Assembly (NCBI GenBank): GCA_014729775.1
Contig: WJJJ01000021.1
Coordinates: 24,788 to 88,787, forward strand
Direction of reading: 5' to 3'
Source of the DNA: Candidatus Omnitrophota bacterium
GTDB taxonomy: Bacteria; Omnitrophota; Gorgyraeia; Duberdicusellales; 4484-171
Length of the DNA: 64,000 nucleotides
Shown: in pieces, positions 17,226-43,400 of the stretch
Layout of the letters: the number at the start of each line of letters is the position of its first letter
Numbering within the stretch: position 1 is the stretch's first letter
Notes under the pieces: generated by a model
Told to the model about the DNA's origin: nothing
The model's database searches: none
Seen by the model: the letters and a program-made list of their open reading frames with translations, nothing else
Program-made: the position numbers and the translations under genes

Positions 17226-17312
17226 CTCTGCCTTTTCTCTCTTGCTACTTACCCCTTACTTCTTACTTTTTATCCCTTATTTCTTACCTCTTACCTCTGC
17301 CTCTCATCTCGT
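17226..17312. repeat. Polypyrimidine CTTAC/CTTCC-repeat intergenic element (copy 1)
   Basis: ...ctacttaccccttacttcttactttttatcccttatttcttacctcttacctctgcctctc... It shares the core tcttacctctg with the element at 23895-23962 and ttcttacttctta with 32508-32549. Confidence 0.6.
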
Positions 17313-18117: not shown

Positions 18118-18118
18118 C

Positions 18119-23894: not shown

Positions 23895-23962
23895 CTCTTC
23901 TTTACCCCTTTTTGCGCTCGGCTTCCTTCCCTCTGTATCTTCTTACCTCTGTCCTCTTCTTC
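23895..23962. repeat. Polypyrimidine CTTAC/CTTCC-repeat intergenic element (copy 2, upstream of mcsA)
   Basis: ctcttctttaccccttttt...cttccttccctctgtatcttcttacctctgtcctcttcttc. Confidence 0.55.
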
Positions 23963-24838
23963 CTACACCGTATACTTCACCCCGTCTTTCTTGGTCGCCT
24001 GTTGAAACCGGCGCATAATCTTTTTGGTGTGCGTCCCGGGATGTCCGCTGCCGATGGTCCTGCCGTCCACCCGCACCACCGGCACGATCTCCGCCGCGGT
24101 CCCGGTGAGAAAACATTCGTCGCTGATAAATAGTTCATGCCGGGTAAGCACGTGCTCATGCGTGGGGATCTTCATCTTTTTGGCGATCTCCAACACCGTG
24201 TCGCGGGTGATCCCCCGCAGGGTTCCCATACATTGAGGCGGAGTATACAGCTCGCCCCCTTTTACCACGAAAATATTATCGCCGGTACACTCGGCAACAT
24301 AGCCCAGGTGATCGAGCATCAGCGCTTCCTGGTATCCGCAGTTGACCGCTTCTATTTTCGCCAGGATATTATTGAGATAATTGAGCGACTTGATCTGCGG
24401 ATTGAGCGCTTCCGGAATATTACGCACCGTCGGCACGGTAATGATCTCCATCCCTTTTTGATATAATTCTCTGGGATACAAATTAATCTTATCGGCGATG
24501 ATCACCAGGGTCTCCTGCCCTTTGCACTTGCGCGGATCAAGCCCCAGATCTCCCGCCCCCCGCGAAAGCACCACCCGGATATAGGCGTCTTTAAGCTTGT
24601 TCTTCTTGAGCGTTTTAATGACGGCTTTTTCCAATTCTTTTTTGGGCAACGGACAGTGCAGCATAATGGAATGCGCCGATTCAAATAAACGGTCGACGTG
24701 CTCTTTCAGCTTAAACACCAGTCCGTCGTAGGCACGGATTCCTTCAAACACCCCGTCCCCGTAAAGATATCCGTGGTCGAACACGGAAATCTTCGCGTCG
24801 TTTTTATCCACCAGCTTGCCGTTCAAATAAATCTTCAT
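23963..24838 (-). CDS. ilvE: Branched-chain / D-amino-acid aminotransferase (PLP fold type IV)
   Basis: Class IV aminotransferase signature (GDGVFEGIRAY...EVNCGYQEA...LTGTAAE) is present. Confidence 0.75.
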   Translation of the reverse strand: MKIYLNGKLVDKNDAKISVFDHGYLYGDGVFEGIRAYDGLVFKLKEHVDRLFESAHSIMLHCPLPKKELEKAVIKTLKKNKLKDAYIRVVLSRGAGDLGLDPRKCKGQETLVIIADKINLYPRELYQKGMEIITVPTVRNIPEALNPQIKSLNYLNNILAKIEAVNCGYQEALMLDHLGYVAECTGDNIFVVKGGELYTPPQCMGTLRGITRDTVLEIAKKMKIPTHEHVLTRHELFISDECFLTGTAAEIVPVVRVDGRTIGSGHPGTHTKKIMRRFQQATKKDGVKYTV

Positions 24839-25515
24839 TGATCCCCCTTTTCTCTGATCCGGCCTTCTTCCAGATAAAGAATCCGTGCGGCCTTTTGGGC
24901 CAGTTCGTGATTATGCGTCACCAGTATTACCGTCTTCCCCAGCTCGCGGTTCAGACGGTCCAACAGCGCCGTGATTTTCTCGCGGGATTCCCGGTCGAGA
25001 TTACCGGTCGGTTCATCGCACAGGATCAGCTCCGGTTCATTCACTAACGCTCTCGCGAATGCGACTTTCTGCTTTTCGCCGCCGCTGAGCTGAAACGGGA
25101 AAAATCTTTGACGCGGCAGGATGTCAAGGTATTCTAACAATTTCGCCGCCTTTTTAAAAGAAGATTTTCTGTGCTTCAAAAAACGCGGCAGCGCGACGTT
25201 CTCCCTCACTCTGAGTTCGTCGATCAAATGATAAAACTGAAACACGTATCCCACCGAGCGGCGGCGCCAGCGGGCGCGCTGCTTCTGGCGCAAACGGTAT
25301 ACGTCTTTTCCCTTCCAGAGAACTTCTCCGCCGGTAGGAGGTTCCAGGCCGCCGATCGCGTGCAACAGCGTGGATTTCCCCGCGCCGGACGGACCGACAA
25401 TACTCACATAATCTCCTTCCTCTATCCGCAGAGACACGTTGTGCAATACGATCACGTGCTCACGGCCGGTCCGGTATATTTTCGACAGATTTTTGACTTC
25501 GAGCATACTATTCAT
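24835..25515 (-). CDS. lolD: LolD/FtsE-type ABC ATP-binding protein
   Basis: Walker A (GPSGAGKST), signature (LSGGEKQKV) and Walker B (ILCDEPT) are present. It is paired with a FtsX-type permease. Confidence 0.75.
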   Translation of the reverse strand: MNSMLEVKNLSKIYRTGREHVIVLHNVSLRIEEGDYVSIVGPSGAGKSTLLHAIGGLEPPTGGEVLWKGKDVYRLRQKQRARWRRRSVGYVFQFYHLIDELRVRENVALPRFLKHRKSSFKKAAKLLEYLDILPRQRFFPFQLSGGEKQKVAFARALVNEPELILCDEPTGNLDRESREKITALLDRLNRELGKTVILVTHNHELAQKAARILYLEEGRIREKGDQ

Positions 25516-26665
25516 AACGTAACGCGCGGCTGGCCGGCAGCCGGGACGCCCGCAGAGCGGGAAAAATACTGGACACGAACGAAATTCCCAGAGCGATGAA
25601 CGCGGTCATCGCCACGTCTTCATAGCGCACGATCACCGGAAGATATTCGGTGAAAAAAATCTCCTCAGGCAGGCGGATAAAAGGGTACTTCTGGAGCAGA
25701 GCGCACGCACCCAGGCCCAGCGCGGAACCGCCGATCACGCCGAGCATCCCGAGGATCATCCCCTGAAGGGTGAAAATCCTCCAAATATGACCGTTGGTAA
25801 ATCCCAGTGACTTCAGTATGCCGATATCCTTTGTTTTTTCCACCACCTTGACCGTGAGCGTGGCGAAAATATTAAACGAGGCGATAAGGATAATAAGAGT
25901 AAGAATGATGAACATCGCGATTTTTTCCAGCCGCAGGGTCGCGAACAGCGCTTCGTTCGTTTCCATCCACGTGGACACGTATACGCCGCGCGAAAACGCT
26001 CCCTGGATACGCGCCTTGATCTCATCCGCCGCAAACGGCTCCTCAATACGCAGACCGAGAAAGAACTGATAATGCGGAGAGATCCGCTTCGCGGTTTCGA
26101 CGTCGGTAATCAGGTAAAAATTATCGATATCGTACAGCCCGACGTGAAACGTACCGCGCACGTCGGCCTCCCGCTGCTGCAGTTTTTTCTGCAGCGGGTA
26201 AAACGTGACCGTTTCTCCCGGCATAAACCGCCGCCTCAACCCTGTTCCGATAAAAAAACCTTCGCCGCCGCGGTCCTCTCGCACGTACTGGGCGAAAAAT
26301 TCCCGTTCCCGTTCATTGGTCAAATCAATTCCTTTGACAATGAGCGGCACGATATTTTCCTGAAATTTGGCGAAAATCTGCGTCTGCACGGCAAGCGAAG
26401 AGATCTCGATGCCCGGCCAGTCCCGTACCGCTTCGTTTACCGAATACAATAACGAATCCTCTTCACTTTCCACGGTCACGTGGTACTGAAACCTCATCAC
26501 CCGTTCCAGCAATCCGCCGTCGATCCCGTTGATGATCGACGTCGCGACGATAACGCTGGCCACCCCCAGCATCACGCCGGCACAGGACACGATACCGATG
26601 AACGAAACGTGTTTAGTTTTCCCGCGGAACAGATACCGTCGTGCGAGATAAAATTCCGTTCTCAT
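25508..26665 (-). CDS. lolC: LolC/LolE-type FtsX-family permease
   Basis: N-terminal TM helix, a large periplasmic domain and a C-terminal FtsX 3-TM bundle are present. Confidence 0.7.
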   Translation of the reverse strand: MRTEFYLARRYLFRGKTKHVSFIGIVSCAGVMLGVASVIVATSIINGIDGGLLERVMRFQYHVTVESEEDSLLYSVNEAVRDWPGIEISSLAVQTQIFAKFQENIVPLIVKGIDLTNEREREFFAQYVREDRGGEGFFIGTGLRRRFMPGETVTFYPLQKKLQQREADVRGTFHVGLYDIDNFYLITDVETAKRISPHYQFFLGLRIEEPFAADEIKARIQGAFSRGVYVSTWMETNEALFATLRLEKIAMFIILTLIILIASFNIFATLTVKVVEKTKDIGILKSLGFTNGHIWRIFTLQGMILGMLGVIGGSALGLGACALLQKYPFIRLPEEIFFTEYLPVIVRYEDVAMTAFIALGISFVSSIFPALRASRLPASRALRYE

Positions 26666-26700
26666 ATCACCTTTTTTTGAAACAAAAATTATTCAGGATT

Positions 26701-28164
26701 TCAAACCTTCTTCTGACCGCCGCTGTCTTCCTCGGGGCGTTCGGGTGCGGCTGCTGCCGGTCGGAGGAGAGGGAAAAGGATCACATCTTTGATTGAAGAC
26801 TGATTGAGAAGAATCATGGCCAACCGGTCGATACCGATGCCCAGCCCGGCGGCGGGCGGCATCCCGTACTGCAAGCTCGCGAGGAAATCCTGATCTATTT
26901 TTTTCGGAAGCTCCTCTTCAACCTCCATCTGCCGCCGGAACCGTTTCTCCTGCTCCAACGGATCATTTAATTCCGAATAGGCATTGGCAACTTCGATCCC
27001 GGCGATGAAAAGTTCGAAGCGTTCCACCAGCGCGGGATTGTCCGGCTTTGCTTTGGCCAGCGGTGACATCCAGGTAAAAAAGTCCACGATAAACGCCGGT
27101 TTTTCCTGAGGATAATGCTTTTCAATCAATTCCTCGGTAATGTTCAATATCTGCGTCCGGGTAAGCCCCTTCTCCAGCGTCAGTTTCTGTTCGATCTTGG
27201 CCAGCATTTCTTCAGGAGCATCCGCGCTCTCTACGCCGAACTCGCGGGAAAATAATGCCGCGAACGAAATTCGCTGCCAGGGCGGGGTAAAATCGATCGC
27301 CCGGCCCTGATATTCAATACGGTAATCTCCGCTGACTTCTTTCACCAATCCGGAAATCATCTGTTCGCACAGCTGCATCATGTATTCAAAACCCTGATAG
27401 GCGCAGTAGGCCTCGAGCATCGTAAATTCCGGATTATGCCGCGGGGACACCCCTTCGTTGCGGAAACTCCGGTTGATCTCAAACACCTTCTCCAGCCCCC
27501 CTACCACTAGGCGTTTTAAATATAGTTCGGGCGCGATGCGCAGATACACATCCATACCCGTCGCGTGATGATGGGTGACAAACGGACGTCCCGCCGCCCC
27601 GCCGGGGATCCGGTGCAACATCGGAGTTTCCACCTCCAGATACCCGCGGCCGGCGAAAAAATCACGCACCCGCGAAACGATCCGTGACCGTTCCATGAAT
27701 ACTTTACGGACGTCGGGATTGGCGATCAAATCAAGAGAACGATGACGGTAGCGCACCTCCACGTCTTTTAATCCGTGCCATTTTTCCGGCAGGGGCCGCA
27801 GCGTTTTGGATAACAGAACGATCTCCTTCGCCAGCACGGTTTTTTCTCCGGTCCGGGTGCAAAACAGCGTCCCCGTTACTCCGATGATATCTCCCACATC
27901 CAGCTGTTTGAACAGCGCGAACAGATTTTCTCCAAGCGTATTTTTCTGGGCGTAAAGCTGTATCTTGGCTTCCCGGCCCAAGATATGCGCGAATCCGGAC
28001 TTGCCGTGTTCCCGCTTGGATACCACGCGGCCGGCTAAAGAAACTTCCTTTTCCTCGGCGAACGCATGCAGTGCCTCACTCACGGACGCAGTAACCGGAT
28101 ATGCCGTCCGCGCGAACGGATCACCCCATTTTTCCTTGATTTTTAGGAGTTTTTCTGTATCCAT
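26701..28164 (-). CDS. lysS: Lysyl-tRNA synthetase (class II)
   Basis: OB-fold N-domain and class II motifs 1-3 (e.g. GGAAGRPF, GIDRL) are present. Confidence 0.85.
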   Translation of the reverse strand: MDTEKLLKIKEKWGDPFARTAYPVTASVSEALHAFAEEKEVSLAGRVVSKREHGKSGFAHILGREAKIQLYAQKNTLGENLFALFKQLDVGDIIGVTGTLFCTRTGEKTVLAKEIVLLSKTLRPLPEKWHGLKDVEVRYRHRSLDLIANPDVRKVFMERSRIVSRVRDFFAGRGYLEVETPMLHRIPGGAAGRPFVTHHHATGMDVYLRIAPELYLKRLVVGGLEKVFEINRSFRNEGVSPRHNPEFTMLEAYCAYQGFEYMMQLCEQMISGLVKEVSGDYRIEYQGRAIDFTPPWQRISFAALFSREFGVESADAPEEMLAKIEQKLTLEKGLTRTQILNITEELIEKHYPQEKPAFIVDFFTWMSPLAKAKPDNPALVERFELFIAGIEVANAYSELNDPLEQEKRFRRQMEVEEELPKKIDQDFLASLQYGMPPAAGLGIGIDRLAMILLNQSSIKDVILFPLLRPAAAAPERPEEDSGGQKKV

Positions 28165-28209
28165 AGGTTTCTCAATTATATAGAATCATTTTCCTACTGT
28201 CAAACGAAT

Positions 28210-29037
28210 TCACCGTCGGTGAGTTCCCCTTTCCCCGGCGTCAATCCGGGGAGAAGCATCGAGCAAACGGCGCGTATATTCTTGCGACGGTTTCCCGAAC
28301 AGCTTTTCCGTGGACGCCTGTTCGATGATCCGCCCCGCGCGCATAACATACACCTCATCGCTCATGTGCCGGATCACGTCCAGGTCATGCGCGATAAATA
28401 AATAGGTAAGGCCGAACCTCCGCTGGAGATCCCGAAGCAGATTCAGCACCTGAGCCTGAACCGACACGTCCAGCGAAGACACAGGTTCATCGAGAATGAT
28501 CATCTTCGGCCGCATGATCAGCGCCCGCGCGATACTGATCCGTTGACGCTGGCCGCCGCTGAACTCATGCGGATAACGCGTCATGCTTTCCGGATCAAGC
28601 CCTACCTCGGTGAGCATTTCCGCAGTTCGCCGATCGCGCGCGTCTTTGGACAATTTCGGTTCCAGTATCCGTAGTCCTTCTTGTAAAATCTGCGCGACCG
28701 TAAACCGGGGGTCCAATGAGGCAAACGGATCCTGAAACACCAGCTGCAGATGCCGACGCAGCTGCCTCAGCCGGGCAGACGGGATCTGCGTCAAGTCTTC
28801 CCCCTGGAAGGCTATGCGTCCCTCACGCTCCCGGATGAGCCGCACGACCGTCCGCGCCAGTGTGGTTTTCCCGCAGCCGGATTCCCCAACCAGCCCTACC
28901 GTACTTCCCTCGGGAACAGACAGATCCACTCCGTCAACGGCTTTTACCCACCCGACGGTTCTCGATAACACTCCCCGCCGGAGGGGGAAATGCACGTGTA
29001 ACCCGGAAACCGAAAGAATCTCGTTCGCGTCATTCAT
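28210..29037 (-). CDS. oppF: Oligopeptide ABC transporter ATP-binding protein OppF
   Basis: ABC ATPase with an Opp-type C-terminal extension. The start is trimmed to the ATG forming an ATGA overlap with oppD. Confidence 0.8.
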   Translation of the reverse strand: MNDANEILSVSGLHVHFPLRRGVLSRTVGWVKAVDGVDLSVPEGSTVGLVGESGCGKTTLARTVVRLIREREGRIAFQGEDLTQIPSARLRQLRRHLQLVFQDPFASLDPRFTVAQILQEGLRILEPKLSKDARDRRTAEMLTEVGLDPESMTRYPHEFSGGQRQRISIARALIMRPKMIILDEPVSSLDVSVQAQVLNLLRDLQRRFGLTYLFIAHDLDVIRHMSDEVYVMRAGRIIEQASTEKLFGKPSQEYTRRLLDASPRIDAGERGTHRR

Positions 29038-29993
29038 ACGCGCACGCACCTCACCCAGTGGTCCGGGGCAATCTCCCTCATCTCAGGCAGTTCATCCCGG
29101 CAGCGCGCCTCCGCGAGCGGACAACGGGACGAAAAAAAGCATCCGGGCGGTTTCGCCGCCGGGTCAGGCACGGTACCGGGAATACTCCTTAATTCCCTGC
29201 GGGCGGTTCGGCCGGGAAGCGAATCCAGCAGTCCCCGGGTATACGGATGCAGCGGATTGCGAATCAGTTCCCGCGTCGCGGCGATCTCAACGATCACCCC
29301 GGCGTACATCACCGCGATACGATCCGCCGCCTGCGCGCAGAGCGCGATATCATGAGTGATAAGCACAAAGGCGAATTCAATCTCCTCCTGCAGCTGACGG
29401 AACAGACGCATGATCCGGGCCTGCACCGTCACGTCAAGCGCAGTCGTCGGCTCATCGGCAACGAGCAGTTTCGGCCTGCAGGACAACGCCATCGCGGTCA
29501 TCACCCGCTGGGCCTGCCCGCCGCTGAGCTGATGGGGATAATCCTTCATCCGCTGAGCGGGCTCGGCAATCCCGACCTTATCCAGAAGTTCGACCGTCCG
29601 CCGCCGCCGGTCTGCTTTGGATAAAGCGGTATGCACCCGCAGCATTTCTTGAATTTGAAATTCTATGGTGAACACCGGATTCAACGCCGCTTTCGGTTCC
29701 TGAAAGATCATCGCGATTTCGCCTCCCCGTACGCGGCGCATCGCCGACTCCGGAAGAGTCAGCAGATCACGCCCGCTAAACGTGACGCGGCCGCGCAGCA
29801 CACGCCCCGGTTCCTGGACCAGCCGCAGCATCGACAGCGCGGTAACCGATTTCCCGCAGCCGGATTCCCCGACCAGCCCCAGCGCTTCTCCCCTGCGTAC
29901 GGAAAAAGTCACGCCTTCGACCGCTCTGACCACGCTGTCTTCAAGAAAGAAGGAAGTATGCAGATCATCGATGCGCAGCAGTTCTTCCGCCAT
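29034..29993 (-). CDS. oppD: Oligopeptide ABC transporter ATP-binding protein OppD
   Basis: ABC ATPase (GESGCGKS, LSGGQAQRV) with a Cys-rich C-terminal tail. The ATG start overlaps the oppC stop. Confidence 0.8.
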   Translation of the reverse strand: MAEELLRIDDLHTSFFLEDSVVRAVEGVTFSVRRGEALGLVGESGCGKSVTALSMLRLVQEPGRVLRGRVTFSGRDLLTLPESAMRRVRGGEIAMIFQEPKAALNPVFTIEFQIQEMLRVHTALSKADRRRRTVELLDKVGIAEPAQRMKDYPHQLSGGQAQRVMTAMALSCRPKLLVADEPTTALDVTVQARIMRLFRQLQEEIEFAFVLITHDIALCAQAADRIAVMYAGVIVEIAATRELIRNPLHPYTRGLLDSLPGRTARRELRSIPGTVPDPAAKPPGCFFSSRCPLAEARCRDELPEMREIAPDHWVRCVRV

Positions 29994-31078
29994 CACCGCC
30001 TCACCACCTGCCGCTTGGGATCATACACGTCCCGCAGCCCGTCGCCGAGCAGGTTATAGGCCATGACCGTAAGAAAAATAAACACGCCGGGAATGAGCAC
30101 CCAGGGATGAAACCGAATCTGCGATACCGCCATGGCTTCCGACAGCAAATTGCCCCAGCTGGCATACGGATCCTGAATGCCCAGGCCGAGCAGGCTGAGC
30201 GCCGATTCACCGAGGATGTATCCCGGCACCGAAATCGATGCGGCCACGACCACATAGGAAAACGTGTGCGGCAGGATATGGCGGAAAATAATTTTCATTC
30301 GTGGCACCCCCAGCGTACGCGCCGCGAGCACGAACTCCCGCTCCCTGAGTGAAATCGCCATCCCGCGCACGACCCGGGCAATTCCCGGCCAGCCGATGAA
30401 CGACATGATGAATACAATCATAAAATACATCTGAACCGAATTCAGCGAATACGAAAATACACTGCGCAGCGCCAGCATCAAATAAAATCCCGGGATCACC
30501 ATAAGTATTTCGCTGACGCGCATGAGCAGCGTATCGGTCCTTCCTCCGAAATACCCGGAAATCCCGCCCACGGTCAAGCCGATCACCAGAGAAATAGCCA
30601 CACCGACCAGCCCGATCGAAAGCGAGATCTGCCCTCCGTAGAGAACGCGGGAGAACAGATCCCGTCCGCGGGAATCGGCGCCCCATAGATACAGCCGCGC
30701 GTCACCTTCCACGCCGAACAAATGGATCCGTGAGGGAAACACACCGAACAGCCGGTATTGGTCTCCCCGGACCAGCAGCCGGACCGGGTATCTGATAGTG
30801 GTATCCTCGACGTAGACCCGGTTGTAATATTCATCGAAGGTAAACGAAGTTTTGTAAATAAACGGCCAGCGCAGATGTCCCTCCTCATCTATCATGCGGA
30901 TCTTCGTCGGAGGCGCGTAACTGGCGGCGCGGTCCTCGTGATCGAAATGATACGGCGCCAGGAACCCGGCGAACAACGCGCTCATATAGAGCGCCGCCAG
31001 CACCCACAGTGAGATCATCGCCAGAGGATGATGCCGCAATTTGCGCAGCCTGCCTTTTTTCAGCGTTTGCTGTGTCAT
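29993..31078 (-). CDS. oppC: Oligopeptide ABC permease OppC
   Basis: BPD permease. The start is trimmed to MTQQTLKKGR... (ATG with AGGTAA upstream). The 59-codon N-terminal extension in the track overlaps oppB out of frame. Confidence 0.75.
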   Translation of the reverse strand: MTQQTLKKGRLRKLRHHPLAMISLWVLAALYMSALFAGFLAPYHFDHEDRAASYAPPTKIRMIDEEGHLRWPFIYKTSFTFDEYYNRVYVEDTTIRYPVRLLVRGDQYRLFGVFPSRIHLFGVEGDARLYLWGADSRGRDLFSRVLYGGQISLSIGLVGVAISLVIGLTVGGISGYFGGRTDTLLMRVSEILMVIPGFYLMLALRSVFSYSLNSVQMYFMIVFIMSFIGWPGIARVVRGMAISLREREFVLAARTLGVPRMKIIFRHILPHTFSYVVVAASISVPGYILGESALSLLGLGIQDPYASWGNLLSEAMAVSQIRFHPWVLIPGVFIFLTVMAYNLLGDGLRDVYDPKRQVVRR

Positions 31079-31089
31079 GATCGTAGGTA

Positions 31090-32055
31090 TTACCTGTATT
31101 GAATACGCGGATCCACCCACACCAGCAGGATATCCGCGATCAAATAGCCCAAAATCAGGAGAAAACCGGTCATCAGCAGATCTCCGGCGAATAAAAACAC
31201 ATCCTGGGTCCGCACCGCTTCCAGCATCAGCGAACCCAGCCCGGGCCAGCTGCAAATGATCTCGGTAAGCGCCGCTCCGCTGAGCAACCCCGAAAGCGCG
31301 CCTCCAAAGATCGTCACCATCGGATTGATCGCGTTGCGTACCGCGTGCAGGTAGATCACCCGGTGCTCGGGGAGTCCCTTTGCCCGCGCTGCGGTCACAT
31401 ATTGACTGCGCAGGACCTCCAGCATATTACCCCGCATCAGCCGCTGCAGTCCGGCGATACCGGCAGTGCCGATCACGACGGTAGGAATGACCAGGTGCTT
31501 TGCCACGTCCAGGCACTTGCCCCACCAGGACATCTGTGCATATCCAAGCGAATGCATCCCGCCGGTCGGAAGGATGCCGGTCACCGAAGCCAGGTACAAC
31601 AACAGCAGCGCGAAGAAGAAATTCGGGATCGAAAGCCCGATAAAGGACAAAAAAGAAAATATCTTATCTCCCAGTTTATACTGGTGGACCGCGCAGTAAA
31701 TCCCCAGGGGCAGTGCGATCAGCCAGCTGAACAGCAAAACCGACAGTGCGAGAATGAAGGTGTTCCACAACCGCAGCTTCAGCAGTTCGAATACCGGGAT
31801 GTTATAGGCGAACGAATACCCGAAATCAAGCCGAACCACGTTCCCCAGCCAGTACAGATACTGCGTAACCACGTCTTCGTTCAAATGGTATTTTTCCTCA
31901 TACATCTGGATGGTTTCTTCGGATACCTGGGGGTTCTGGCGAAGCTGATCGAAATAATTTCCCGGAGCCAAATTCACCGCCATAAACCCCAAGAAACTCA
32001 TGACCAGCAACAACGGAATGAAAAATAAAAAGCGGCGGATGATATAGTTAGTCAT
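31090..32055 (-). CDS. oppB: Oligopeptide ABC permease OppB
   Basis: BPD permease with a typical OppB N-terminus (MTNYIIRRFLFFIP). Confidence 0.8.
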   Translation of the reverse strand: MTNYIIRRFLFFIPLLLVMSFLGFMAVNLAPGNYFDQLRQNPQVSEETIQMYEEKYHLNEDVVTQYLYWLGNVVRLDFGYSFAYNIPVFELLKLRLWNTFILALSVLLFSWLIALPLGIYCAVHQYKLGDKIFSFLSFIGLSIPNFFFALLLLYLASVTGILPTGGMHSLGYAQMSWWGKCLDVAKHLVIPTVVIGTAGIAGLQRLMRGNMLEVLRSQYVTAARAKGLPEHRVIYLHAVRNAINPMVTIFGGALSGLLSGAALTEIICSWPGLGSLMLEAVRTQDVFLFAGDLLMTGFLLILGYLIADILLVWVDPRIQYR

Positions 32056-32102
32056 GATTCATGCTTATAAGAAGTAGGAAGCAAGATACAAGAAGTAAAG
32101 AA
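32056..32102. repeat. Purine-rich flank (inverted copy of the CTTAC-type element) on the left side of the IVS-protein insertion
   Basis: cttataagaagtaggaagcaagatacaagaagtaaag. Its reverse complement resembles 32508-32549. Confidence 0.5.
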
Positions 32103-32507
32103 TCAATCCCGTTTATCAAAATTTTGCCAACGTTTCATCAAAGAAAAAAGCATCGCTCCTATTTTATTATATTGGTCGAGGAAACTCTTATGCTCTTCCT
32201 CGGCTATATACAGACAATCCCTAGCAAAATCTAACCATACTTTAGTCTCTTCACACGATCCATTCGCATCATTAAGATGCCTGATAAAGACATTCTTATA
32301 TTTACGTTTTGCCCAACCTTCAGCAATATTCACTGGAATCGAACGCGTTGACCTCCTCAACTGATCAGTTAACGAATAAGTCTCTTCTTTAGGAAACCGC
32401 TTAGAAACTACAAAAATCTGTTTAGCGGCAAGAAAAGAAACCTGGTAGACGACTAAATCTTTATAAGTTGTAATAATTCTTTTTGTATTGAGCGTTGGCC
32501 CTCCCAC
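32103..32507 (-). CDS. Four-helix-bundle protein of the 23S rRNA-intervening-sequence protein family
   Basis: About 130 aa, all-helical, with a family-typical ...IAEGW...LDFARDCLYI... core. It has a GTG start. The gene is markedly AT-richer than its neighbours. Confidence 0.65.
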   Translation of the reverse strand: MGGPTLNTKRIITTYKDLVVYQVSFLAAKQIFVVSKRFPKEETYSLTDQLRRSTRSIPVNIAEGWAKRKYKNVFIRHLNDANGSCEETKVWLDFARDCLYIAEEEHKSFLDQYNKIGAMLFSLMKRWQNFDKRD

Positions 32508-32549
32508 CTTAATTGTATATCTTATTTCTTGCTTTTTGTTTCTTACTTC
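32508..32549. repeat. Polypyrimidine CTTAC-type element (copy 3) on the right flank of the IVS-protein insertion
   Basis: cttaattgtatatcttatttcttgctttttgtttcttacttcttatc. Confidence 0.5.
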
Positions 32550-34247
32550 TTATCGCCCAATATATATCTCTTCCAGATTGTGAAACGCGCCGCCGTACGG
32601 CGTGGGGTTGAGATTGCCGAATTTATTACGCACGGCAAAGATGTTCATGGGCAGGACGGTATAGATGAACGGCTGCTGCTCGGCCACGATCACCTGCCAG
32701 CGGTCGTAAAGTTCTTTGCGTTTTTCACGGTCAAGTGTCTGAACGCCCTGGTCGAATATGCGGTCGATCTCCGCCTCCCACTCGGTTGCCGGATGCGGCT
32801 GGTGAGGATACCACATGTGCAGATGCCCGCTGGACTGCCAGACGTTATTGCCGAAGTGCGGTTCGATCCCCCCGGTCAGTCCCAGTATCACCGCGTCCCA
32901 GTCGTAGGTTGAATCAAGCTTGCTGATCAGCTGATTGAACGCCAGCGGCACGAAATTAATTTTAAACCCCAGCGCTTCCATGTCCTTACGCAGAATATTG
33001 GCGATCTGGATCCGCTGGGTGTTTTCGGCGTTGGTGAACAGATTAAAGCGAATTTCACGTCCCTGCTCGTCTTCGGCAATCCCGTCCTGATCACGGTCAA
33101 AGATCCCGATCTCCTTCAGCAACTGTCTGGCCCGCGGGAGGTTATACTCGTTCCTGGGCACGTTGGGGTTGTAGAAATAGCCGCTGGAGGGACTCATCGG
33201 CGAATACTGGGGCACGCCGAGTCCGTTCATGACGATATTCACCAGCGACTGCTTGTCGATCGCGTGAGCCAGCGCCCGCCGGAAGTTCACGTCGGTGAAC
33301 CATTCCAGTTTGGCCTCCGACACATAGGGATTGCCCGTCTCGGGATTCACGCCCCGGTTCTGATTCAGCACTAAAAAGTTGGAACCGAACGCCGGGCCGG
33401 TTTCATATACGGTAAAATTCCCCCGGCGTTCCTTGGGCTTGAGGATCGGGTAATCCTGCCCCCGTACCGACAGATAATCGATCTGTCCCTCCTGAAATTT
33501 GAGCATGGCCACGTCCCCGTTCTGTACGATCACATAGACCACCCGCCGCAAATAGGGCAGACGGCTGCCGTCGGCATCCTCTTTCCAGTAGCGGGGATTC
33601 CGTTTCATGATGACCCGTTCTCCCGGCACGTATTTCTCAAGCAGAAACGGCCCGGTACCGACAATATCCTGGGGACCGGTATTAAGCCCCCAATGATAAC
33701 TGAATTTCCCTTCTTTTACCACCTGCGCCAGACGGTGCTCAGGAAGAATCTCCTGGCTCATACTGCGCAAAAACGGCGCGAACTTGCCCGGCAGAACAAA
33801 CCGCACGGTGTACGCATCAATTGTTTCCACGACAAACGGCTCACCTTCAATCGAAAAAATATCACGGGAACTGGTAGGAATATCGGGATTATAGATAAGT
33901 TTATTAAAGGTAAACACCACATCCTCGCTGGTGAACGGCTCGCCGTCGGACCACACCACGTCTTCGCGCAGATGAAAGGTCCAGATCTTTCCGTCCTCAC
34001 TCACCTCCCAGGACTGGGCCAGATTGGGCTCAACTTCGAGCGTCACCCCATTGGTCGTAGTCAGCCCTTCGAAGATAAGATTGGTGATCGCGGTCGTCGA
34101 GGTCTCCTTTGCGACGATCGGATTGAACGATTTGGGATCACTGAGCGCCGATAGTACCAGCTGCCCGCCGTGCCGGTCGACGGCAAAACCCCGGCCGAAG
34201 GCGGCCGCGAAAAAAAACACACCCAAAAACAACCTGAGAATCTTCAT
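32550..34247 (-). CDS. oppA: Oligopeptide-binding periplasmic protein OppA (SBP family 5)
   Basis: Signal peptide followed by an SBP_bac_5 fold. The start is set at the second ATG with an AGGAAGG SD. Confidence 0.8.
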   Translation of the reverse strand: MKILRLFLGVFFFAAAFGRGFAVDRHGGQLVLSALSDPKSFNPIVAKETSTTAITNLIFEGLTTTNGVTLEVEPNLAQSWEVSEDGKIWTFHLREDVVWSDGEPFTSEDVVFTFNKLIYNPDIPTSSRDIFSIEGEPFVVETIDAYTVRFVLPGKFAPFLRSMSQEILPEHRLAQVVKEGKFSYHWGLNTGPQDIVGTGPFLLEKYVPGERVIMKRNPRYWKEDADGSRLPYLRRVVYVIVQNGDVAMLKFQEGQIDYLSVRGQDYPILKPKERRGNFTVYETGPAFGSNFLVLNQNRGVNPETGNPYVSEAKLEWFTDVNFRRALAHAIDKQSLVNIVMNGLGVPQYSPMSPSSGYFYNPNVPRNEYNLPRARQLLKEIGIFDRDQDGIAEDEQGREIRFNLFTNAENTQRIQIANILRKDMEALGFKINFVPLAFNQLISKLDSTYDWDAVILGLTGGIEPHFGNNVWQSSGHLHMWYPHQPHPATEWEAEIDRIFDQGVQTLDREKRKELYDRWQVIVAEQQPFIYTVLPMNIFAVRNKFGNLNPTPYGGAFHNLEEIYIGR

Positions 34248-34427
34248 ATGATACCTTCCTTTTTTATTCAATGAAACCATATTATACCTGATTGGATGGG
34301 GAAAATAAAGGGAATGGGTGAGCTCTTTTATCCGGGACGATAGAGCCTTCCCAGACGGCGCGCGTTAAGCCGATCCGGCTCCTGGGCTGGGACTTTTCGC
34401 TCCGCACGCAATATTCGCGCAGAACCC

Positions 34428-37400
34428 TCATCGTTTTCTTTTTCTGGATCTTCCGGACCTGCTTTTCCGCTTTTTCGCCGATAATGCCGGTTGATCCGGA
34501 CGGTCGCGTTGATGCCCTTTCTGCGCGGAAGAGAATCGCGCTCTCAGCGTCCGTTTCAAGAACAAACCGGCACAATACGCGCCGAAGAGTACCGCGCCTG
34601 TCTGCAGGACCAGAGCAAAGGTACTCTGAGGACGAACAGAGACGCCCAGACGTTCAAGCGCTCTGGCGACTTCTTCGCTGGCAGCGCCGTTATCCGGAGA
34701 ATAAAGGATCGCCTTCTCGTAATCGTTTCTGGATTTCTTTTTCTGACCGAGAGCGGCATAAGTCAGACTGCGATGAAAGTACAGCTGGGCATCTGCGGGC
34801 GCGATGGAAAGAGCTTGGTCAAACAGAGCAAGCGCGCGCCCGTAGTGTCCAAGCTCACGAAGGATAACAGCCCGGCACCGCAACCCTTCAAGTGAGCGCG
34901 CGTAAACGGTATCATATTCGCACGCCCGTTCATGATCAGCCAGCGCCGCTGGCAGGTCTTCCTCGACCAGATAATAGTAGCCGGCGCGAAGCACATAAGC
35001 CTGTGCTGAATAGGGATTCATCTCCAGCGCCTTATTGATATCGCTGATCGCCAGATCGTACCGCCCGGACTTACAGCGGACTTGAGCACGGTCAACCAGT
35101 ATCTGGTCATTAAGGGTGTCATGTTCAAGCGCGGCGTCGAAAAGCGCTATGGCCCGCTTGAAGGCGGACGGCCCTCCGTCCGCCAGGACCCGTTTCGCGT
35201 ATGACTGCAGACTCAGGCTCACCAGGGTCCTTTGACCCCCGAGACGAGCCATCCGGTAAAAACGCGCGAAGGGCGCATCATTACGCACCCGCAGATGATT
35301 TGCTTCCTGAAAAAAGAACTCCTCGAAATCAAAGTTCGCTTGAGCAACGCCGGTACCGGCCGCCGCATCGCAGTAGGAAAATCTTCGCGCTCCCTTTACG
35401 AGAACGGCGACATGGGAAATATCAAACGCCTCCTGATCGGCGCCGCCGGCCCTTCGCTGGGTATGTTCGTAGAGCTCTATTGGCACCGCTTTTATTTTAA
35501 GTGTTCGCAGAAGGTAATACAGCAAGATATTCATGCTTACACAATTACCGGTCTTCTCGAAGGCGAGCGCGCGCAGGCTGAACACACCAATGTCATAGCG
35601 GTATTTCTCCCTGATTGCTCCGGCGATCTCGCTGGCCGTCCTGAACACATCTTCTTCGACCCTATGCTGCCGTGACTGCGCCTGCCATATCCGCAGCATT
35701 GACCGGCCCTGCGCGTCTTTCCAGTCCGCCACGTCAGCCGCTATTCTCTCGGCCACTTCCCGGGGACGCCGGTCGCCGGCCGCCCGGCAATGCCAGTGAA
35801 TGCCGGCCTGCAGTGCCTGCGCCACAGATGTCTGCCCGTCACCCGCGGCAAAAGAAGACGGCGCCAACGCCAGCAGCGCCAACATTCCGGTTGTCGCCGA
35901 AAGGAAATACCTGCGCGAAGCCGTCTTCTCCCGCACACTGCCTCCCGGTGCTCCAGCGGGAGCGCGCATAGTTACGGGAGGGTGTACCGCCGAGGAAGCA
36001 GCAGGATTCACCTCGCAGTCGGCGGCCGGATAGACCATCATATAACGGTATCCCTGCAGTCGCAAAACCGATAATTCCCGAACCAGTGGCGTTCCGTGAT
36101 GTGAATCGATCACTTTCGCCTGCCAACGCCCGTTCCGGCATTTTAATCCCGGCACAAAATACGACTTATATGCCTGCGCAGCGATGAGCGCGGCATCTCC
36201 GTCCAGGACCGAACTGAACTGCTGCTGCCAAAACCGGTGATCGATCACCTCCCGTCCCAGAAGGATCTCCATTTTCCTCGGCCGGGCCAGCCGGCTCACC
36301 ACCGGCTGACTTATGCGGAGAAATCCATTCTCATCCAGGGTAAGATCACCCAATGCGTCCAACTCACACAGAATATCTTCTTCGGTTTCATTCCGGTATA
36401 CCTGCCGGTGCGGCAAAATCACCTGCCAGAAACTGAACGCGTGGATCAATGACCGCAGAAGACAGCCTTCAACCCGGGGATAATGGCTGTAAGGTTGGCC
36501 GGTGTACGTTTGTTTCGCCCATCCGTTGACCGGGGTGATATCATAATATTTTGTTTTGAAATCCACTGCCCCGGGAGCGCTTGCGGATTTCGATCCGCCT
36601 CCCTGTCCCTCTCGGAACAAATCTTTTCCCTGCGGGCGAAAGATGTGCGTGTCTTCCGGGAGACGAGTTTCTTTATTGAGATTTTGTTCGGACACACGCA
36701 CTATCCATTCGGGGATATCGGTTGTCACGTCTGTATCCGCCGCATTGATCCGCGGACGGCCTTGGAACAGAAAAGGCAAACGCAGCCCTGATACTAATTT
36801 TGGAGAAGCCGTGTACACCGTGCCGGCACACCCTTGCGCCGTGTACATAAATCCCTTCTGTAAGCGGATGACGGTACCCGGAGCAAGCACCTCCCGGCGG
36901 GAACGGCTCACCTGATAGGTATGATTTTCCAGATAGGTCACACTCACCGTATCCACCTGATTATACGTATGCGGATGCCGGATATTCAACGCGGGAGAAA
37001 CCGGTTCACTCAACCAGCGCGGGTCATCGGTCGAGAAAGGTTCCTGTTCGAAAGGGGTCACGTCCTCCGCGAAAAATTTACGGAATACATGAGCATTATG
37101 GATAAAAGGAGTGGATACCTTTACATTCCTGATACGCAGCATACGCGCCCATTTCACGATCCAGGACAACACGGCCTGACTGATCCCAAGATTAAGATAG
37201 CGGCGGTCCTGGGGAGTGCGCCAGACAGTACCGATAGGATAGTATTGCGTTATCTCCAGAGAACGATCAGCATACACCGCAGCCACTACCCGGCGCCGTC
37301 GTTCCGCTTCACCGTTAATCACGGTACGCGCGGTCAACGTCATCACCGGCCACTCAGAATTCCCGTACTTTGGAGTGGTCATGACAATTGACAAACCGAC

Positions 37401-40400
37401 TCCCGGACGCTCTCCCTCCGGTTCTACAAGAGGGATCTCATTATCCGTATCCGCCGGAGATGATGAAGCCTGATCCGTTACGGACCGCGGCGGGGCCTCT
37501 TGCCTTCTGACACGACGCAACCACGCATCAATCCAGTAGATCAGGATCCCCGACCAGAGAATTCCCATATTCGCAGCGATTAACACAATGTATTCAGGGA
37601 AAAACGCCCAGCCCAGAGACAGCCCGCTCGCCCAGAATACCCCGTTACCCGCGTAAAGACGGAGGAAATCCTTCACGGTTTCTTTAAATTCAATATCCGA
37701 CCGATCTTTCCGCACCAGATATTTATGGATGGCAAAATTCGCGGGCAGTCCCACTACCGCTGCGAAAAGCGTGATATCAAGAAACACCTTCCAGAACACG
37801 CCGGGAACAAACGCGGTAAGGAACCCGTACCATGCCCCGAATACGACTATTCCCACGTATAGTCCCCCGAACAGGCTCCAGCGGCCGATCGCCGGCCAGT
37901 CTATCCGTTCGCCCCTGACGGTCTGGTTCATGTACATACCGCACCCCCGGGACACCCCTCCGACCACCGTCTTGATCCCAAGCGCGGCATAAAACCCGGA
38001 CTGAACCGCCGCAATATACCAATGACCGAAAAAGACCGAAAGCAAAACCGCTACGGCCGGGATCCCGGCAAGCACCCCCCACCGGAGATAGCGGCGCATA
38101 CGCGCCGTGAACTGGGCCTGTCGAGTGAACTTCTCCTCGGCCGGACTCGAAACACTCCCGTTTCCACTGGAATGATGAGAATCGTTGACCTCCGCATTTC
38201 TCTCCCGCTGACGCTGCCGGGCACGATCCGTGATCGCCAGCGTCGCGCAGCGCTTAAGCAACGTCACGTCAGTGGCAAAACACAGTTCGGTACGATACCC
38301 GTTGCGCCCGTATAACAACCCGATAAGCCCGCCCTGCAGGTCGAACACCGGCGCTCCGCTAAATCCTTTTTCGGCCCCTTGCGCTTCGATAATCAGCATT
38401 GCCGTCGGTTCCACCCGCCGCGCCGTGCCCCGGATCAACTGGAAGTTGCGGTAATTCGCATGCGGCGCTCCCGGTATGACTACCGGTACCCCTTCATGCT
38501 GTGAGGCGATTGGAAACGTACGGCGGGAATAAGAGGCAAACCGCCGCAAAGGAGTAAAAACATTCTCGGGATAACTGGCTTTCCGTATCCGCAATAATCC
38601 TATGTCAGGATATTTCTGGCTGGCCGTGACTTCACCCCACAACCGCCCTCTGTCGTTTTTCACCAATAATCGAGAAAGTTCGGAATAAAGCACATGAGCG
38701 GCACTGGCAACATAGTAAAAATCGCTGTCTTCATCGAATATAAAACCCGTGCCTCCGCCGAACCATGTGGTCTCATCCTCTCCATGCGTATGTCTCACGA
38801 CAACAGGTTTGCGGACGACCACAAGATTCTCGGCGATGAGTCTCAGCCGTTCATCGGAAATATGATGAAGCTTTTGGGAACTATACGCGGACAATCTCTC
38901 ATAGAGAAAACCGTCGCCCCCCTGCCGACGGCCGCGGGTGCCGCGTTCCCTGCCCGCAGGAGAACCGGCCGCGGTGCCAAACTGTGCATTCGCCGGACGT
39001 CCGTTTGTCACCCGGTAAATATCGCACGTAGAGCAATAACTTACCATGCAATGGTACTTCTCCACCCCCATGACCGGATCCGGCACCGGTAACCCAAAAT
39101 GGTACCGGCCGCCGCTTCTCAATATCTCCTCTACTATATCCACAGGAACGCCGGAAACCGGATCACGCGCTACCTCTTCCCGATTCCACAATATCGCTAC
39201 GCCGCCGGGAAAAAGGAGATACGCAAGTCCCTTCGCCAAACGGCGCAACGAGATCTTGCCCACGTCGCCGTCCCAACATGACTCAAAGGTAGCGCCGCCC
39301 AACTTTCTCTCTTTCAAATATTCATAGACAAAAAACCGCAAATTTCGGCTTTCTGCCACAGCCTCCGGGATCTCGCCGGGCAGCACGTAAGGCATATTCC
39401 AGTTTACAGCGTCAAACCGCAATCCGGGAAACCGGGACTCGCCGTCCGGAGAAACGATATTGTCGGCGATCATCGCCTTGATCTCAAACCCGACGAGCTT
39501 CGCCGTATAGCGGGCGTTTGCGATCTCCATGGGATTGATACCGAGAGTATATTGTGTTTGTCCCGTTTTCAAATACATCAGCCAAAGCTCAAGCCCGGTC
39601 CCCGGACCGACCGTCAACACCCTGCTGCCGCGATGTATCCTTTTCTCCTCCCACAACATCCGATAATATTCCTGGTCCGCGTCGCTGTTTAACGACGGTG
39701 AATATACGGTGGGATATACGGGGGTAATAAGAGAATGCACCCGATCGGACTTTGCCTTATCAACGGCTCTGGTGTTCACCACCCACCCATTTCCGCCGAG
39801 CTGAAACAGACCATCCGTTTCCCACGCGCCGGTATCGCGGTCAATGCGGGCGACCACATACGGCAGCTGGCCATTACCCGGCCGTATCTCGCGGACCCCC
39901 TCCCGCAGCTTCGCGGTCGAGAAATCCTGAATAAATTCCGAATTACCCCGAGCTTCCTCCAGGAACGCTTCACAATGCTGAATTAAACCGGGATCATGAA
40001 GCTCCGGTATAGTAAAATAAAAATAACTCAGGTTCAGATATCTGGGATGTATTTCATCCAGTTTATCCATGCTTTGCAAAATATCCGAAGGAATCACCGG
40101 AAAAACCGCGACAAGCCGTCCTTGCTGATTATATAAAAGATCCACTTCTTCCAGAACGAATGCGTAAGGAACTACCAAAATATGCTTCAACACCTCTTGC
40201 CCCACACAGGCTCCCGCCGGCGAATCATGACTATCCGGCAGACGGACGCGCCGGTACCCGATCCCTTCGCGATGATGCGCCGCATTTCGCAACCCTAAGA
40301 AAAATAACAGGTCTGCCGCGACTGCCTCGCGAGCGGCGCTCTCCTGCGCACCGGATGAGTTGCGAAGATCGCTATCGGACTCCCCCGTTTCTCCCACATA

Positions 40401-43400
40401 ATACTCCTGACCGCAAAATCTTCGCTTAAACGGCGCGAATTTACTCATTCCTGCCGGCAGCAGACTCATTGATCCGAACCAAGGCGACCGATATGCGTGC
40501 CAGAGGCGGTAATTCTCCCGATTTGGTTTCAGCATCACCGCCCCGCTCTGTCCCCGTTTCCGGCGGCGCAGCACCACATTGAGACCCGGCCCGGATATCG
40601 ATACGTCTGTCACCTCGAACTGCTCCTCCAGCACGTCGAACGCCTTCGTGATTTTCAACCGGTTCCCGTCCAAATGATCGGCCCTCACCCCTCCGCGGAG
40701 GAACGTATACACCACACGCTCGACCGGCTCCTGCAGGGCATCCGCGACCGCGCGCACAAGACAATTCCTCCTAAGCTCAAACGGCACCCTTCCTGCTCCG
40801 CCGCGGGAAACGAGATACAATCCCGCTGAATACCGGATCTTTATGACAAAACGTCCCGTAGCGCGGCAGGCCGCGGCAAAAATTTGCCGTTCAGGCCTAT
40901 ATTCCTGAGGAACCGCGGCAATGCCCTGCTGAACCGCAATCGAGTATAACTGATGGAAAAACCCGCGATCGAACAATATCCTTTTTTGTTCGGCCTCGCG
41001 TAAAAGTTGCGCTAATTCCCGGGGATGATGAGAATAATATTCTTCACTGAAACAGCACGCCTTTTCATGTCCGGTACCAACCGCATAGCACGGACACACA
41101 CGGCCGGCCCCTGCCTCCCGGCGGCGCCTGTTTACCTCGCGATCCTGAGCAAGATGACGGAGCTCTAATTCTTCATGACGGTGCACATCGGCGAGTATTT
41201 CACTGCCGGGGTCCCTTCGAATCAATTCAAGCACTTGCCAGTGCACGGTGAAGAGAAGCCGTTTCACACTGTAATCAATCGAAACAAGCGGCGCGTATTT
41301 GTAAGGAACTACCCGCACCTCAATCGCTTCCGCCGGGGGCGCGTGGGGAAGAAGTCCTTCCAATAATTCTTTCACATATTCCTTGGCAAAATACCTGCCG
41401 AAAAACTGCCCTGGCAATGCTCCTTGAACACGGAAATCGCGGCGATCACTGTTTTTCGCGAATGTGACCGGCGGCTTCAAACTCCGCTTCCCGGCACACG
41501 CGGCGTAACAAATTCGTCCCGCGCGGGAAAAAGGCTCTCTTTCTGTGAGGGGACTGGAGCCGCCCCGGTGACGGAAAAGATCAGTGAACTGAAGGGTAGT
41601 GAGCTGATGCGGACGCTTTCCAAAATATTCGTATCCGGCGCTCTCCAGCACATAGCTATTTCGCGCAGTCCGGAAATGAGGAAGGCCCAACCGGCTCTTC
41701 GCGTGTGACCGCAGCACATATACCATCCCTCTGAGGTTATAAAACCGGTTTCCCCTGTCGGGAATATCAGAAGAAATGCTCACTGCGCCTGCCCCGCTTA
41801 TGGAAACAAACACATTACTTAACATTACGCCGTATGCGGCAAGGCCGCCGTACACGCCGTAATGAATCGCGCCGATATACACCGGCCGGTTCTCCCGCGG
41901 CATGATCTGCGTGACCCCGTCCTCGAGAGTACAAGTCTGGAACGCGATTCGGTCCGACAACTGCCGCGTACGCGGATGATGCGCGATATACCCGGAAACC
42001 GGCAGCCGATCCACGCCAACAAGATTACCGTTCAAAAATTCAAGCAGATTGGTTCTCCCACTGGATAACGCATCGGCAAAAAACCCCTCCACGTCGGGAC
42101 ACACGGGGCTGCGCAAAGTGAACATATCTTCCTTATCTTCCCGGTATGCTCCCGGAAACATAGATGAATGCCCGCAGCGCCGGAAAAAATTCGAAATCAA
42201 ATACTCAGTATGAAAAAACCTTGTTCGCGACCACGAATCTGGGTGAAGCGGATAAAACCGTTCCCGGCTCAAATAATTTTCCGCGGCCGCGATGATTTCC
42301 CGTCTGAGCGGGATATCCTGATTTTTTATTCTCATCAAAACCTGCAACGCGCTTCTCCGCACTCGAGCAGAAAACGGCCGCCTGGTGGCCGACAGCAGCG
42401 CTCTGATTACTTCCGGATTCATCCGGTCCTCATCACTTAAAGAAGTTAAAGCCATCCACACTTGATGAGAATGGCCCGGAACCGGATCCGTCAAAATTCG
42501 CACTGCTTTATGTTCGGGAACACGTCCATCCCGGGGAATAGCGCTGTCCGGATATATGGGACCGGGAGAGGAGCTGGTTCCGCTCTCTGACGATACCCGT
42601 TCAGGATTCAATCCTTTGCTTTCCGCGATCTCTCTCAAGGCCGACTCCGCCGGGCCCTTAATCTGGCGAATGCGTTCTCTGGTAACTCCAACTCTTTCTC
42701 CCGCCGCCTGCAGCGTCAGCACTTCTGCATCCTCCCCGATCGCAACCCGGATACGACTGATTACAGATAACTCGCATACCTGCAAATCACGCTCGGGATC
42801 CTTCCGGTTCCGGAATATCTCGCGCAAACGCGCCCGCAGCTCTTTAATAATCTCCCGGCCTAAGGCGTGGACACCCCGAACCTCTTCCTCAGTATCGGGT
42901 TTCGCCTCAAGGTCTTGCAGGACGGTATGACGGTCATCGAAATCCTGCCCTCCCCCGGGCTGATCCAATGAAACCGCGCCTCTGTGCCGGACCAGGTAAC
43001 TGTCGATTTGCTGCACAGGCACCCCGGTTACCTCGGAAATCTCTGCCGGGGACAACAGCCCGGTGGAAAGCTCTATATTATGCTCCCGGCACAGGTTTCT
43101 TAGTTTCCTGTCTTTTTCCTGCTGAGACGTAGGAGTCCGTACTATATGTTTCTGTCCCTGGATTTCCCGGGTAATCACTTGGCGGATCCACCAGCTCGCA
43201 TAGGTCGAAAATTTGTATCCGGTTTGGAATTCATAACGCGGAATTGCTCGGTATAAACCGATATTCCCCACACTGATCAATTCCATCAACGTAAACGGAT
43301 GACGAAGATACTTTTTTGCAAATTTTACTACGAGGCGGAGATTGGAATTCCATGCCTCGGTATGAGACTGCCTGTTCACCCGGCGTTCCTCGGTCCTGTT

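Follow-up and report, generated by a model that had tools for sequence, protein, structure and literature searches.

Introduction

Why does a small gene for a four-helix-bundle protein stand between oppA and oppB, where it splits an operon that would otherwise run without interruption from oppA through oppBCDF? The locus lies in a stretch of 64,000 nucleotides (nt) from a Candidatus Omnitrophota bacterium (contig WJJJ01000021.1), which was analysed as a whole and is called the window below. The gene and the opp genes on either side are all encoded on the minus strand. An original prediction, made from the letters alone, took the 405-nt gene and its flanks for a small mobile or selfish insertion carrying a protein of a family otherwise known from rRNA intervening sequences (IVSs). 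Here, we establish the family membership of the protein, the insertion polymorphism at this junction, the anatomy of the flanking arms, the sense orientation of such elements at cistron junctions, the specificity of the repeat units for protein subfamilies and the generality of the arrangement across phyla. The window locus and ~130 relatives show that the gene and its inverted heptamer arrays form one unit, which has landed repeatedly at cistron junctions. In our assessment, the element is probably an IVS-type selfish cassette: one Avd-like/S23p four-helix-bundle gene between two inverted arrays of ~7-nt units, horizontally acquired and seated at the oppA–oppB junction in the orientation of the operon, with processing at the RNA level that we infer. 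Coordinates of the features are collected in Table 1.

Identity and composition of the inserted gene

The product of the inserted gene belongs to the family PF05635. In profile searches it matches PF05635 (23S_rRNA_IVP) with an E value of 8.8e-34 and 116.4 bits, against a curated cut-off of 33.8, and TIGR02436 ('four helix bundle protein') with an E value of 1.5e-30 and 105.6 bits, against a cut-off of 24. The AlphaFold2 (AF2) model, calculated with 31 homologues as input, has a mean confidence score (pLDDT) of 88.8 and is composed of four helices. Among its best fold matches in Foldseek are PDB entry 2GSC (XCC0516), with template-modelling (TM) scores of 0.79/0.90 and a root-mean-square deviation of 1.2, and 2RLD (BT_0352), with a TM score of 0.73; Avd (4DWL) is more distant, with a TM score of 0.70. 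The window protein also matches 2GSC in sequence (E 5.5e-11), and 2GSC forms a homopentameric ring according to Lin et al. 2006, as cited in PMC4990558. The four-helix-bundle, 23S-rRNA-IVS-type identity that had been read from the letters is thus borne out.

The RxxxSxxxNxxE motif described for the family (PMC3936711) is present in the window protein as RSTRSIPVNIAEG. In alignment A1, which holds 31 sequences with the window protein among them, Arg55, Ser56, Asn60 and Glu63 are invariant, and the window protein keeps all of the invariant columns. The mean column identity of this alignment is 66% across phyla, with many invariant residues. Regarding the start of the gene, the GTG at 32507 is the first standard start codon. 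The NCBI record (P0001, 140 aa, MRYTIKVGG...) begins 18 nt further upstream, at an ATA codon within the 5′ arm (32508-32525). One copy of the gene is present in the window, and no further copies or relics were found within the 64 kb.

The gene is conspicuously AT-rich, as had been proposed. The content of guanine plus cytosine (GC) per 100 nt is 0.31–0.42 over 32000-32550 and 0.55–0.61 on either side, and the bin 32001-32500, at 0.366, is the lowest among the 128 500-nt bins of the window. At third codon positions the GC content (GC3) is 0.33 for the four-helix-bundle gene and 0.66–0.71 for oppA, oppB, oppC, oppD and oppF. The same contrast recurs in relatives: the neighbours exceed the gene in GC3 in 30 of 31 related loci, with means of 0.50 and 0.37, respectively (Wilcoxon p 3e-9).

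Inverted heptamer arrays enclose the gene

Both flanks of the gene are tandem arrays of a ~7-nt unit, RYAAGAA on the sense strand, for which Tandem Repeats Finder (TRF) reports a period of 7. The plus strand of the 3′ arm reads ATAAGAA, GTAGGAA, GCAAGAT, ACAAGAA and GTAAAGA. Without gaps, the two arms pair over 32 nt with 81% complementarity (32067-32098 and 32522-32553). With gaps, the pairing extends over 32067-32107 and 32512-32553 with a score of 35, which is reached by none of 100 composition-preserving shuffles of the flanks. The terminal word common to both arms, ATAAGAAGTARGAARCAA, occurs four times in the window against 0.13 expected. The flanks had been described as imperfect inverted copies of one element. 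The inverted relationship stands, and the imperfect match aligns as stated; the boundaries were slightly off, since the upstream arm reaches 32553, and the arms are not unique sequence but ~7-nt repeat arrays, as in the 23S IVS of Coxiella (PMC4990558).

The element measures ~490 nt, and the open reading frame (ORF) sits in sense orientation in the loop closed by the terminal complementary arms. Its ends are set tightly into the operon. The oppA stop codon (32550-32552) falls within the 5′ arm, and the 3′ arm overlaps the stop codon of the four-helix-bundle ORF by a few bases. An Rfam search of 31800-32800 gave no match to a known RNA family, and the same search in nine related loci gave neither a known RNA family nor an rRNA context.

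The same junction in related genomes

OppB homologues 76–81% identical to the window OppB were traced to their contigs, and the oppA–oppB junctions were compared. The junction is empty in four lineages (L047/L048, L051/L052, L137 and L138), where the two genes either share an ATGA overlap or adjoin without a gap. The synteny around these empty junctions is kept, with the giant gene upstream and oppC, oppD and oppF downstream; the longer loci, L047/L048 and L051/L052, also carry a gene for a class II aminoacyl-tRNA synthetase beyond oppF. Other relatives hold an occupant of their own. In L005 the junction carries another copy of the subfamily of the window protein (subfamily A), and the proteins are 65% identical, with 71% identity for OppA and 76% for OppB. 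In L049/L050 and in L136, a locus that is partly N-masked, it is occupied by a different PF05635 subfamily (subfamily B; '...SIGANYREANDA...', E 3e-14), surrounded by other heptamers, CCAATAA upstream and TTATTGA-type downstream. The four-helix-bundle ORF of L050 has a 40-nt deletion relative to L049. A Y1_Tnp gene (IS200/RAYT-like, PF01797) lies directly 3′ of the opp operon that holds the subfamily-B cassette in L049 (5246-5908) and L050 (5206-5868).

In a neighbour-joining tree of OppB, loci with an empty, an A-type or a B-type junction are intermixed. L005 falls with L047 and L137, both empty, and the window clusters with the empty L051 and with L136 and L049, which are of B type. This is most simply read as at least three separate insertions at one oppA–oppB junction, because the alternative requires several precise excisions, each of which restored a 4-nt stop/start overlap. 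The insertion boundaries are approximate, since even the nearest empty sites share just ~80% protein identity. The idea of a small mobile or selfish insertion is thus upheld by the insert-free junctions of four lineages, the other occupants, the interleaved tree and the compositional contrast.

Generality across genomes and metagenomes

The arrangement is not peculiar to opp operons. Subfamily A was collected in a scan of one genome per species (GTDB representatives) with an alignment of close homologues as the query, which gave 46 loci; the source genome of the window is outside the representatives scanned. These loci are distributed over Omnitrophota, Planctomycetota, Elusimicrobiota, Desulfobacterota, Nitrospirota, Bacteroidota and other phyla. 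A significant flanking inverted repeat is present in 33 of the 46, in which purines dominate the sense strand of the upstream arm and the downstream arm is its complement. Subfamily B was collected in a metagenome scan (80 loci, 77 of them testable for flanking repeats), and 62 of the 77 have significant flanking inverted repeats. Across 96 related elements of both sets, the autocorrelation at lag 7 rises to a sharp peak of 0.45–0.48 in both flanks, whereas a control region 1 kb upstream gives 0.26. Among the repeats that TRF reports for the loci, period 7 likewise dominates, with 184 rows, and a further 90 rows have a period of 14 or 21.

The position within operons is equally regular. The upstream neighbour is co-directional with the gene in 30 of 33 subfamily-A loci and 53 of 60 subfamily-B loci (83/93 overall). 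Between the upstream stop codon and the beginning of the arm, the median distance is 0.5 nt for A and 9 nt for B. On the far side, in both sets, the next gene mostly begins no more than a few tens of nucleotides from the second arm. Some metagenome-assembled genomes (MAGs) hold two or more diverged copies (L010/L013, L033/L036 and L017/L043). Most of the copies found lie at cistron junctions of ordinary operons. The window protein does belong to the family known from rRNA IVSs, as had been noted, and the PF05635 family is not restricted to them. A search for defence systems with PADLOC gave no match for the subfamily A or the subfamily B protein.

Each protein subfamily has its own repeat unit

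Protein subfamily and repeat unit vary together. Around genes of subfamily A the units are of the AGAAGTA, AGAAGCA or AGAGGCA type, and around those of subfamily B of the CAATAAC or CAAGATA type. Both subfamilies occur ~1 kb apart on one Omnitrophica contig (L007, 3858-3915 and 5032-5511), each with its own unit, CAGAGGC for A and CAATAAC/TTGGTTA for B, and with several further arrays in between. Similarly, one Elusimicrobia MAG (L017 and L043) carries two subfamilies with the units AGAAGCA and CAGTCAC. A further unit accompanies the XCC0516-type gene of Xanthomonas campestris, the gene of crystal structure 2GSC (L053, 2921-3375), which lies between accB and accC, with aroQ ahead of accB, and not in rRNA. 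It is preceded by GGGAATC, GGGAGTG, GAGAATC and GGGAATC, and followed by an inverted ATTCCCC/ATTCTCG/ACTCCCT array that abuts the accC ATG. GGGAATC heptamers have been described as 'G-quadruplex' repeats (Rehm et al. 2015, PMC4692102).

Arrays also occur without the gene. At another cistron junction of the window, a solo array (Table 1) lies in a minus-strand operon between an ABC-ATPase gene (17350-18156) and a MlaD gene (16460-17158), in the bin with the second-lowest GC of the window. No ORF or inverted partner was found in this array, and no four-helix-bundle relic ORF nearby. A weaker periodic stretch, purine-rich on the sense strand, is located at a further minus-strand cistron junction (23926-23961), where TRF reports a period of 16 with AGGTAAG-like units. 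Several related loci contain solo arrays, and also ORF-less inverted heptamer hairpins with arms 4–50 nt apart. The hairpins, which may be non-autonomous derivatives, have been located at L018 2785-2967, L039 1443-1663 and 3815-3920, L036 6615-6691 and L021 278-352, and their units are those of the nearby cassettes.

Two further arrangements of arrays were observed. In L009 (7121-7797), an ordinary-looking 203-aa gene, putatively for a glutamine amidotransferase like HisH by the appearance of its sequence, is bracketed by the inverted arrays CTTGGGA and AAGACCC/AAGTCCC; therefore, arrays can enclose host genes too. In L018 (2354-2453) and L019 (2274-2375), two adjoining arrays, ATGGAAC and then CTTCAAG, encode the N-terminus of a c-type-cytochrome-like ORF with CxxCH, and this pair of arrays recurs ~3 kb downstream.

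Comparison with known elements

The closest known counterparts are the 23S rRNA IVSs that encode S23p, which occur in Leptospira, Coxiella burnetii, Xanthomonas and Brucella (Warrier et al. 2016, PMC4990558). The Coxiella IVS is 428 nt long and holds its S23p ORF in the loop of a 28-bp terminal stem, which RNase III cleaves. Tandem heptamers (GACAGAT) occupy its AG-rich 5′ region, and their copy number varies among strains (PMC4990558). The window element shares with such IVSs a PF05635 ORF in sense orientation within the loop, terminal complementary sequences for a long stem, AG-rich 5′ heptamers, the lack of a recognizable promoter of its own, a sporadic distribution that suggests horizontal transfer, and its size (~490 nt, against 428–759 nt for the IVSs). 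However, it is located in a polycistronic mRNA, between oppA and oppB, and not in helix 25 or 45 of the 23S rRNA gene, and its heptamer is RYAAGAA and not GACAGAT. In addition, excision by RNase III has been shown for the rRNA elements, whereas the window element is known from its sequence. Because all of the anatomy is common except the defining location, we have named it an IVS-type cassette and have not filed it as a 23S IVS.

Intergenic heptamer repeats form a second point of comparison. According to Mori et al. 2018 (PMC6344855), heptamers are the most abundant of the periodic repeats between prokaryotic genes, and there is 'no clear clue' as to what they do. A Xanthomonas genome is reported to hold ~190 GGGAATC arrays, at least 70 of them as inverted pairs, with no associated gene described, and Nostoc has GGGGA(C/T)T (Rehm et al. 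2015, PMC4692102). As in the cassettes, these arrays have a period of 7, stand at gene junctions and frequently form inverted pairs that converge, and GGGAATC itself flanks the XCC0516-type gene; in contrast, both reports (PMC4692102 and PMC6344855) give the arrays without an associated gene or function. Outside the Coxiella IVS, no link between heptamer arrays and PF05635 was found in the literature searched, with subscription literature outside the search. Nor could we find there a description of the wider pattern, that is, inverted arrays specific to a subfamily, repeated insertion at a single junction and the GGGAATC link.

Genes of the family have been seen in operons before. 23S_rRNA_IVP genes wedged in cas operons, for example between cmr3 and cmr2, were read as a functional association with CRISPR–Cas (Zhang, Doak & Ye 2013, PMC3936711). 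They likewise stand between adjacent operon genes. The pattern found here, in which any operon can be occupied, directly after a stop codon and with variation among relatives, points to opportunistic insertion.

Proposed explanation and its alternatives

Lacking a recognizable promoter or terminator of its own, the cassette is most likely co-transcribed within the opp mRNA, and the bias towards the sense orientation fits a need for host transcription. The two arms could then pair into an imperfect stem of 32–41 bp with the ORF in its loop; the minimum-free-energy fold calculated for the sense RNA includes the terminal stem. The oppA stop codon, at the base of such a stem, would come to lie near the oppB start codon, which follows 11 nt after the stem. 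If the 23S IVSs of Coxiella and Leptospira that carry S23p are a guide, the stem may be a substrate of RNase III, and looping or cutting out at the RNA level would keep the element tolerable to the host. Acting on the heptamer arrays cognate to it, the protein would maintain or propagate the element. We infer stem formation in vivo, cleavage by RNase III, binding of the repeats by the protein and the mode of movement.

Several observations weigh against this explanation. Among the mismatches between arms, changes that would be wobble-compatible on the sense strand are not in excess (61 vs 43 for A and 68 vs 69 for B), and transversions, 92 for A and 312 for B, are as common or commoner. In the window, all four transition mismatches of the arms are A·C on the sense RNA and G·U on the antisense RNA, and the antisense would fold better, with a z-score of −3.2 compared with −1.1 for the sense. 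About a quarter of the homologous loci are without a detectable inverted repeat. The AT-richness could be a constraint of the family and not a sign of recent transfer, because the GC3 of the gene tracks that of the host neighbours (r 0.78 over the 31 related loci). As a further caveat, simple consensus scans of the sense strand inside the element found no sigma-70-like promoter and no intrinsic terminator. Finally, an RNase III cut between oppA and oppB in the mRNA could harm the operon and not protect it.

As an alternative, the cassette could act as DNA. It would then be a cargo-carrying transposable element, or one like a miniature inverted-repeat transposable element (MITE), in which the arrays serve as terminal inverted repeats or hairpin ends for a transposase or recombinase supplied in trans (e.g. 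Y1/HUH), the protein is cargo or accessory, and RNA pairing is irrelevant. We consider this unlikely, though it is the most probable of the alternatives. The arms are inverted and bound the mobile unit, the ORF-less hairpins of several loci look like non-autonomous derivatives, the wobble-compatible mismatches have no strand asymmetry, and the Y1_Tnp gene of L049/L050 stands just 3′ of the opp operon. The cassette also resembles MITEs and hairpins of the repetitive extragenic palindrome (REP) type in being short, intergenic, bounded by inverted repeats and without a transposase. On the other hand, its arms are variable-length tandem arrays and not unique, defined termini, it holds a conserved gene in strict sense orientation, and no transposase was found near it in the 64-kb window. 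Target-site duplication is not above chance, with a mean longest direct repeat at the boundaries of 3.68 compared with 3.49 in shuffles (95 elements), where the boundaries are fuzzy enough that duplications of 2–3 nt are possible. A bias towards the orientation of host transcription is also unneeded at the DNA level, although selection for expression of the ORF could yield it. The wobble and target-duplication tests, both negative, do not separate an RNA-level from a DNA-level role of the arms.

A domesticated regulator is a still less probable alternative. In such a system, the protein would bind arrays at many cistron junctions, that of its own operon included, and tune translation coupling or mRNA stability, so that the arrays would constitute a regulon. 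The solo GTAAGAR array between the ABC-ATPase and MlaD genes of the window would suit this, as would the numerous arrays, solo and paired, that related loci have at junctions, the abundance of GGGAATC arrays in Xanthomonas genomes, whose function is not known (PMC4692102), together with their presence around the XCC0516-type gene, and the strong conservation of the protein across phyla. However, close relatives differ in the presence of the gene at the oppA–oppB junction, two subfamilies with different repeats occupy one site, and no functional link to peptide transport is evident. The polymorphism, together with the foreign composition and the decaying copies such as that of L050, makes regulation the less likely function. 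A remnant or accessory gene (Avd) of a diversity-generating retroelement is rejected as very improbable, because the matches to bAvd (PF22296, 32 bits) and DivGenRetAVD (NF033474, 32 bits) are below the curated cut-offs of 40 and 80, respectively, no pair of template and variable repeats was found within ±9 kb (24000-42000), where the sole long direct repeat is that of the paralogous oppD and oppF, and no reverse-transcriptase gene is among the flanking genes examined, which are opp genes and a giant ORF. What Avd shares is a homologous four-helix-bundle fold and the character of a small, basic protein working with nucleic acid within the element that encodes it.

Features of the locus

Directly upstream of oppA, a single minus-strand ORF of at least 9,856 aa (34428-63998) runs off the end of the window and contains many short Ser/Pro-rich 'SSSP'-like linkers. 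Its syntenic relatives are called as genes of 7,948, 10,721 and 45,887 residues.

Table 1. Features of the window discussed in the text; positions are counted from the first letter of the window
Feature	Position	Strand	Description
Four-helix-bundle protein gene (PF05635/TIGR02436, S23p/Avd-like)	32103-32507	−	Intact; GTG start; 134 aa
Upstream (5′) arm	32512-32553	−	Purine-rich on the sense strand; ~7-nt units ATAAGAA GTAAGAA ACAAAAA GCAAGAA ATAAGAT...; TRF period 7, 4.7–5.4 copies
Downstream (3′) arm	32067-32107	−	Sense strand rich in pyrimidines; reverse-complementary to the 5′ arm, with its 7-nt periodicity
Spacer, 11 nt	32056-32066	−	AAGCATGAATC on the sense strand; separates the end of the 3′ arm from the oppB ATG
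oppA (family-5 solute-binding protein, SBP_bac_5), upstream host gene	32550-34280	−	
oppB (ABC permease, BPD_transp_1), downstream host gene; then oppC, oppD, oppF	31090-32055	−	
Solo array, GTAAGAR unit as in the cassette arms	17248-17298	−	TRF 7.3 copies, ~12 by eye; possibly related

Significance

Beyond the window, we tentatively propose that PF05635 proteins are the trans-acting partners of tandem heptamer arrays, with each subfamily recognizing its own 7-nt unit, and that they belong to widespread mobile cassettes with hairpin and solo-array derivatives; we regard this broader proposal as possible but doubtful. If it is true, it would account for the purpose of the 23S IVS protein, a 30-year-old puzzle, and for the abundance of unexplained period-7 intergenic repeats, such as GGGAATC of Xanthomonas and possibly the short tandemly repeated repetitive (STRR) sequences of cyanobacteria. 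The 23S rRNA IVS would then be one special landing site of these cassettes. The window locus and its relatives also advise caution in taking PF05635 genes for functional partners of the operons that host them, for example cas operons. Both of the old questions can be put to the test with XCC0516 of Xanthomonas, between accB and accC, where the organism is in culture and the structure of the protein has been solved.

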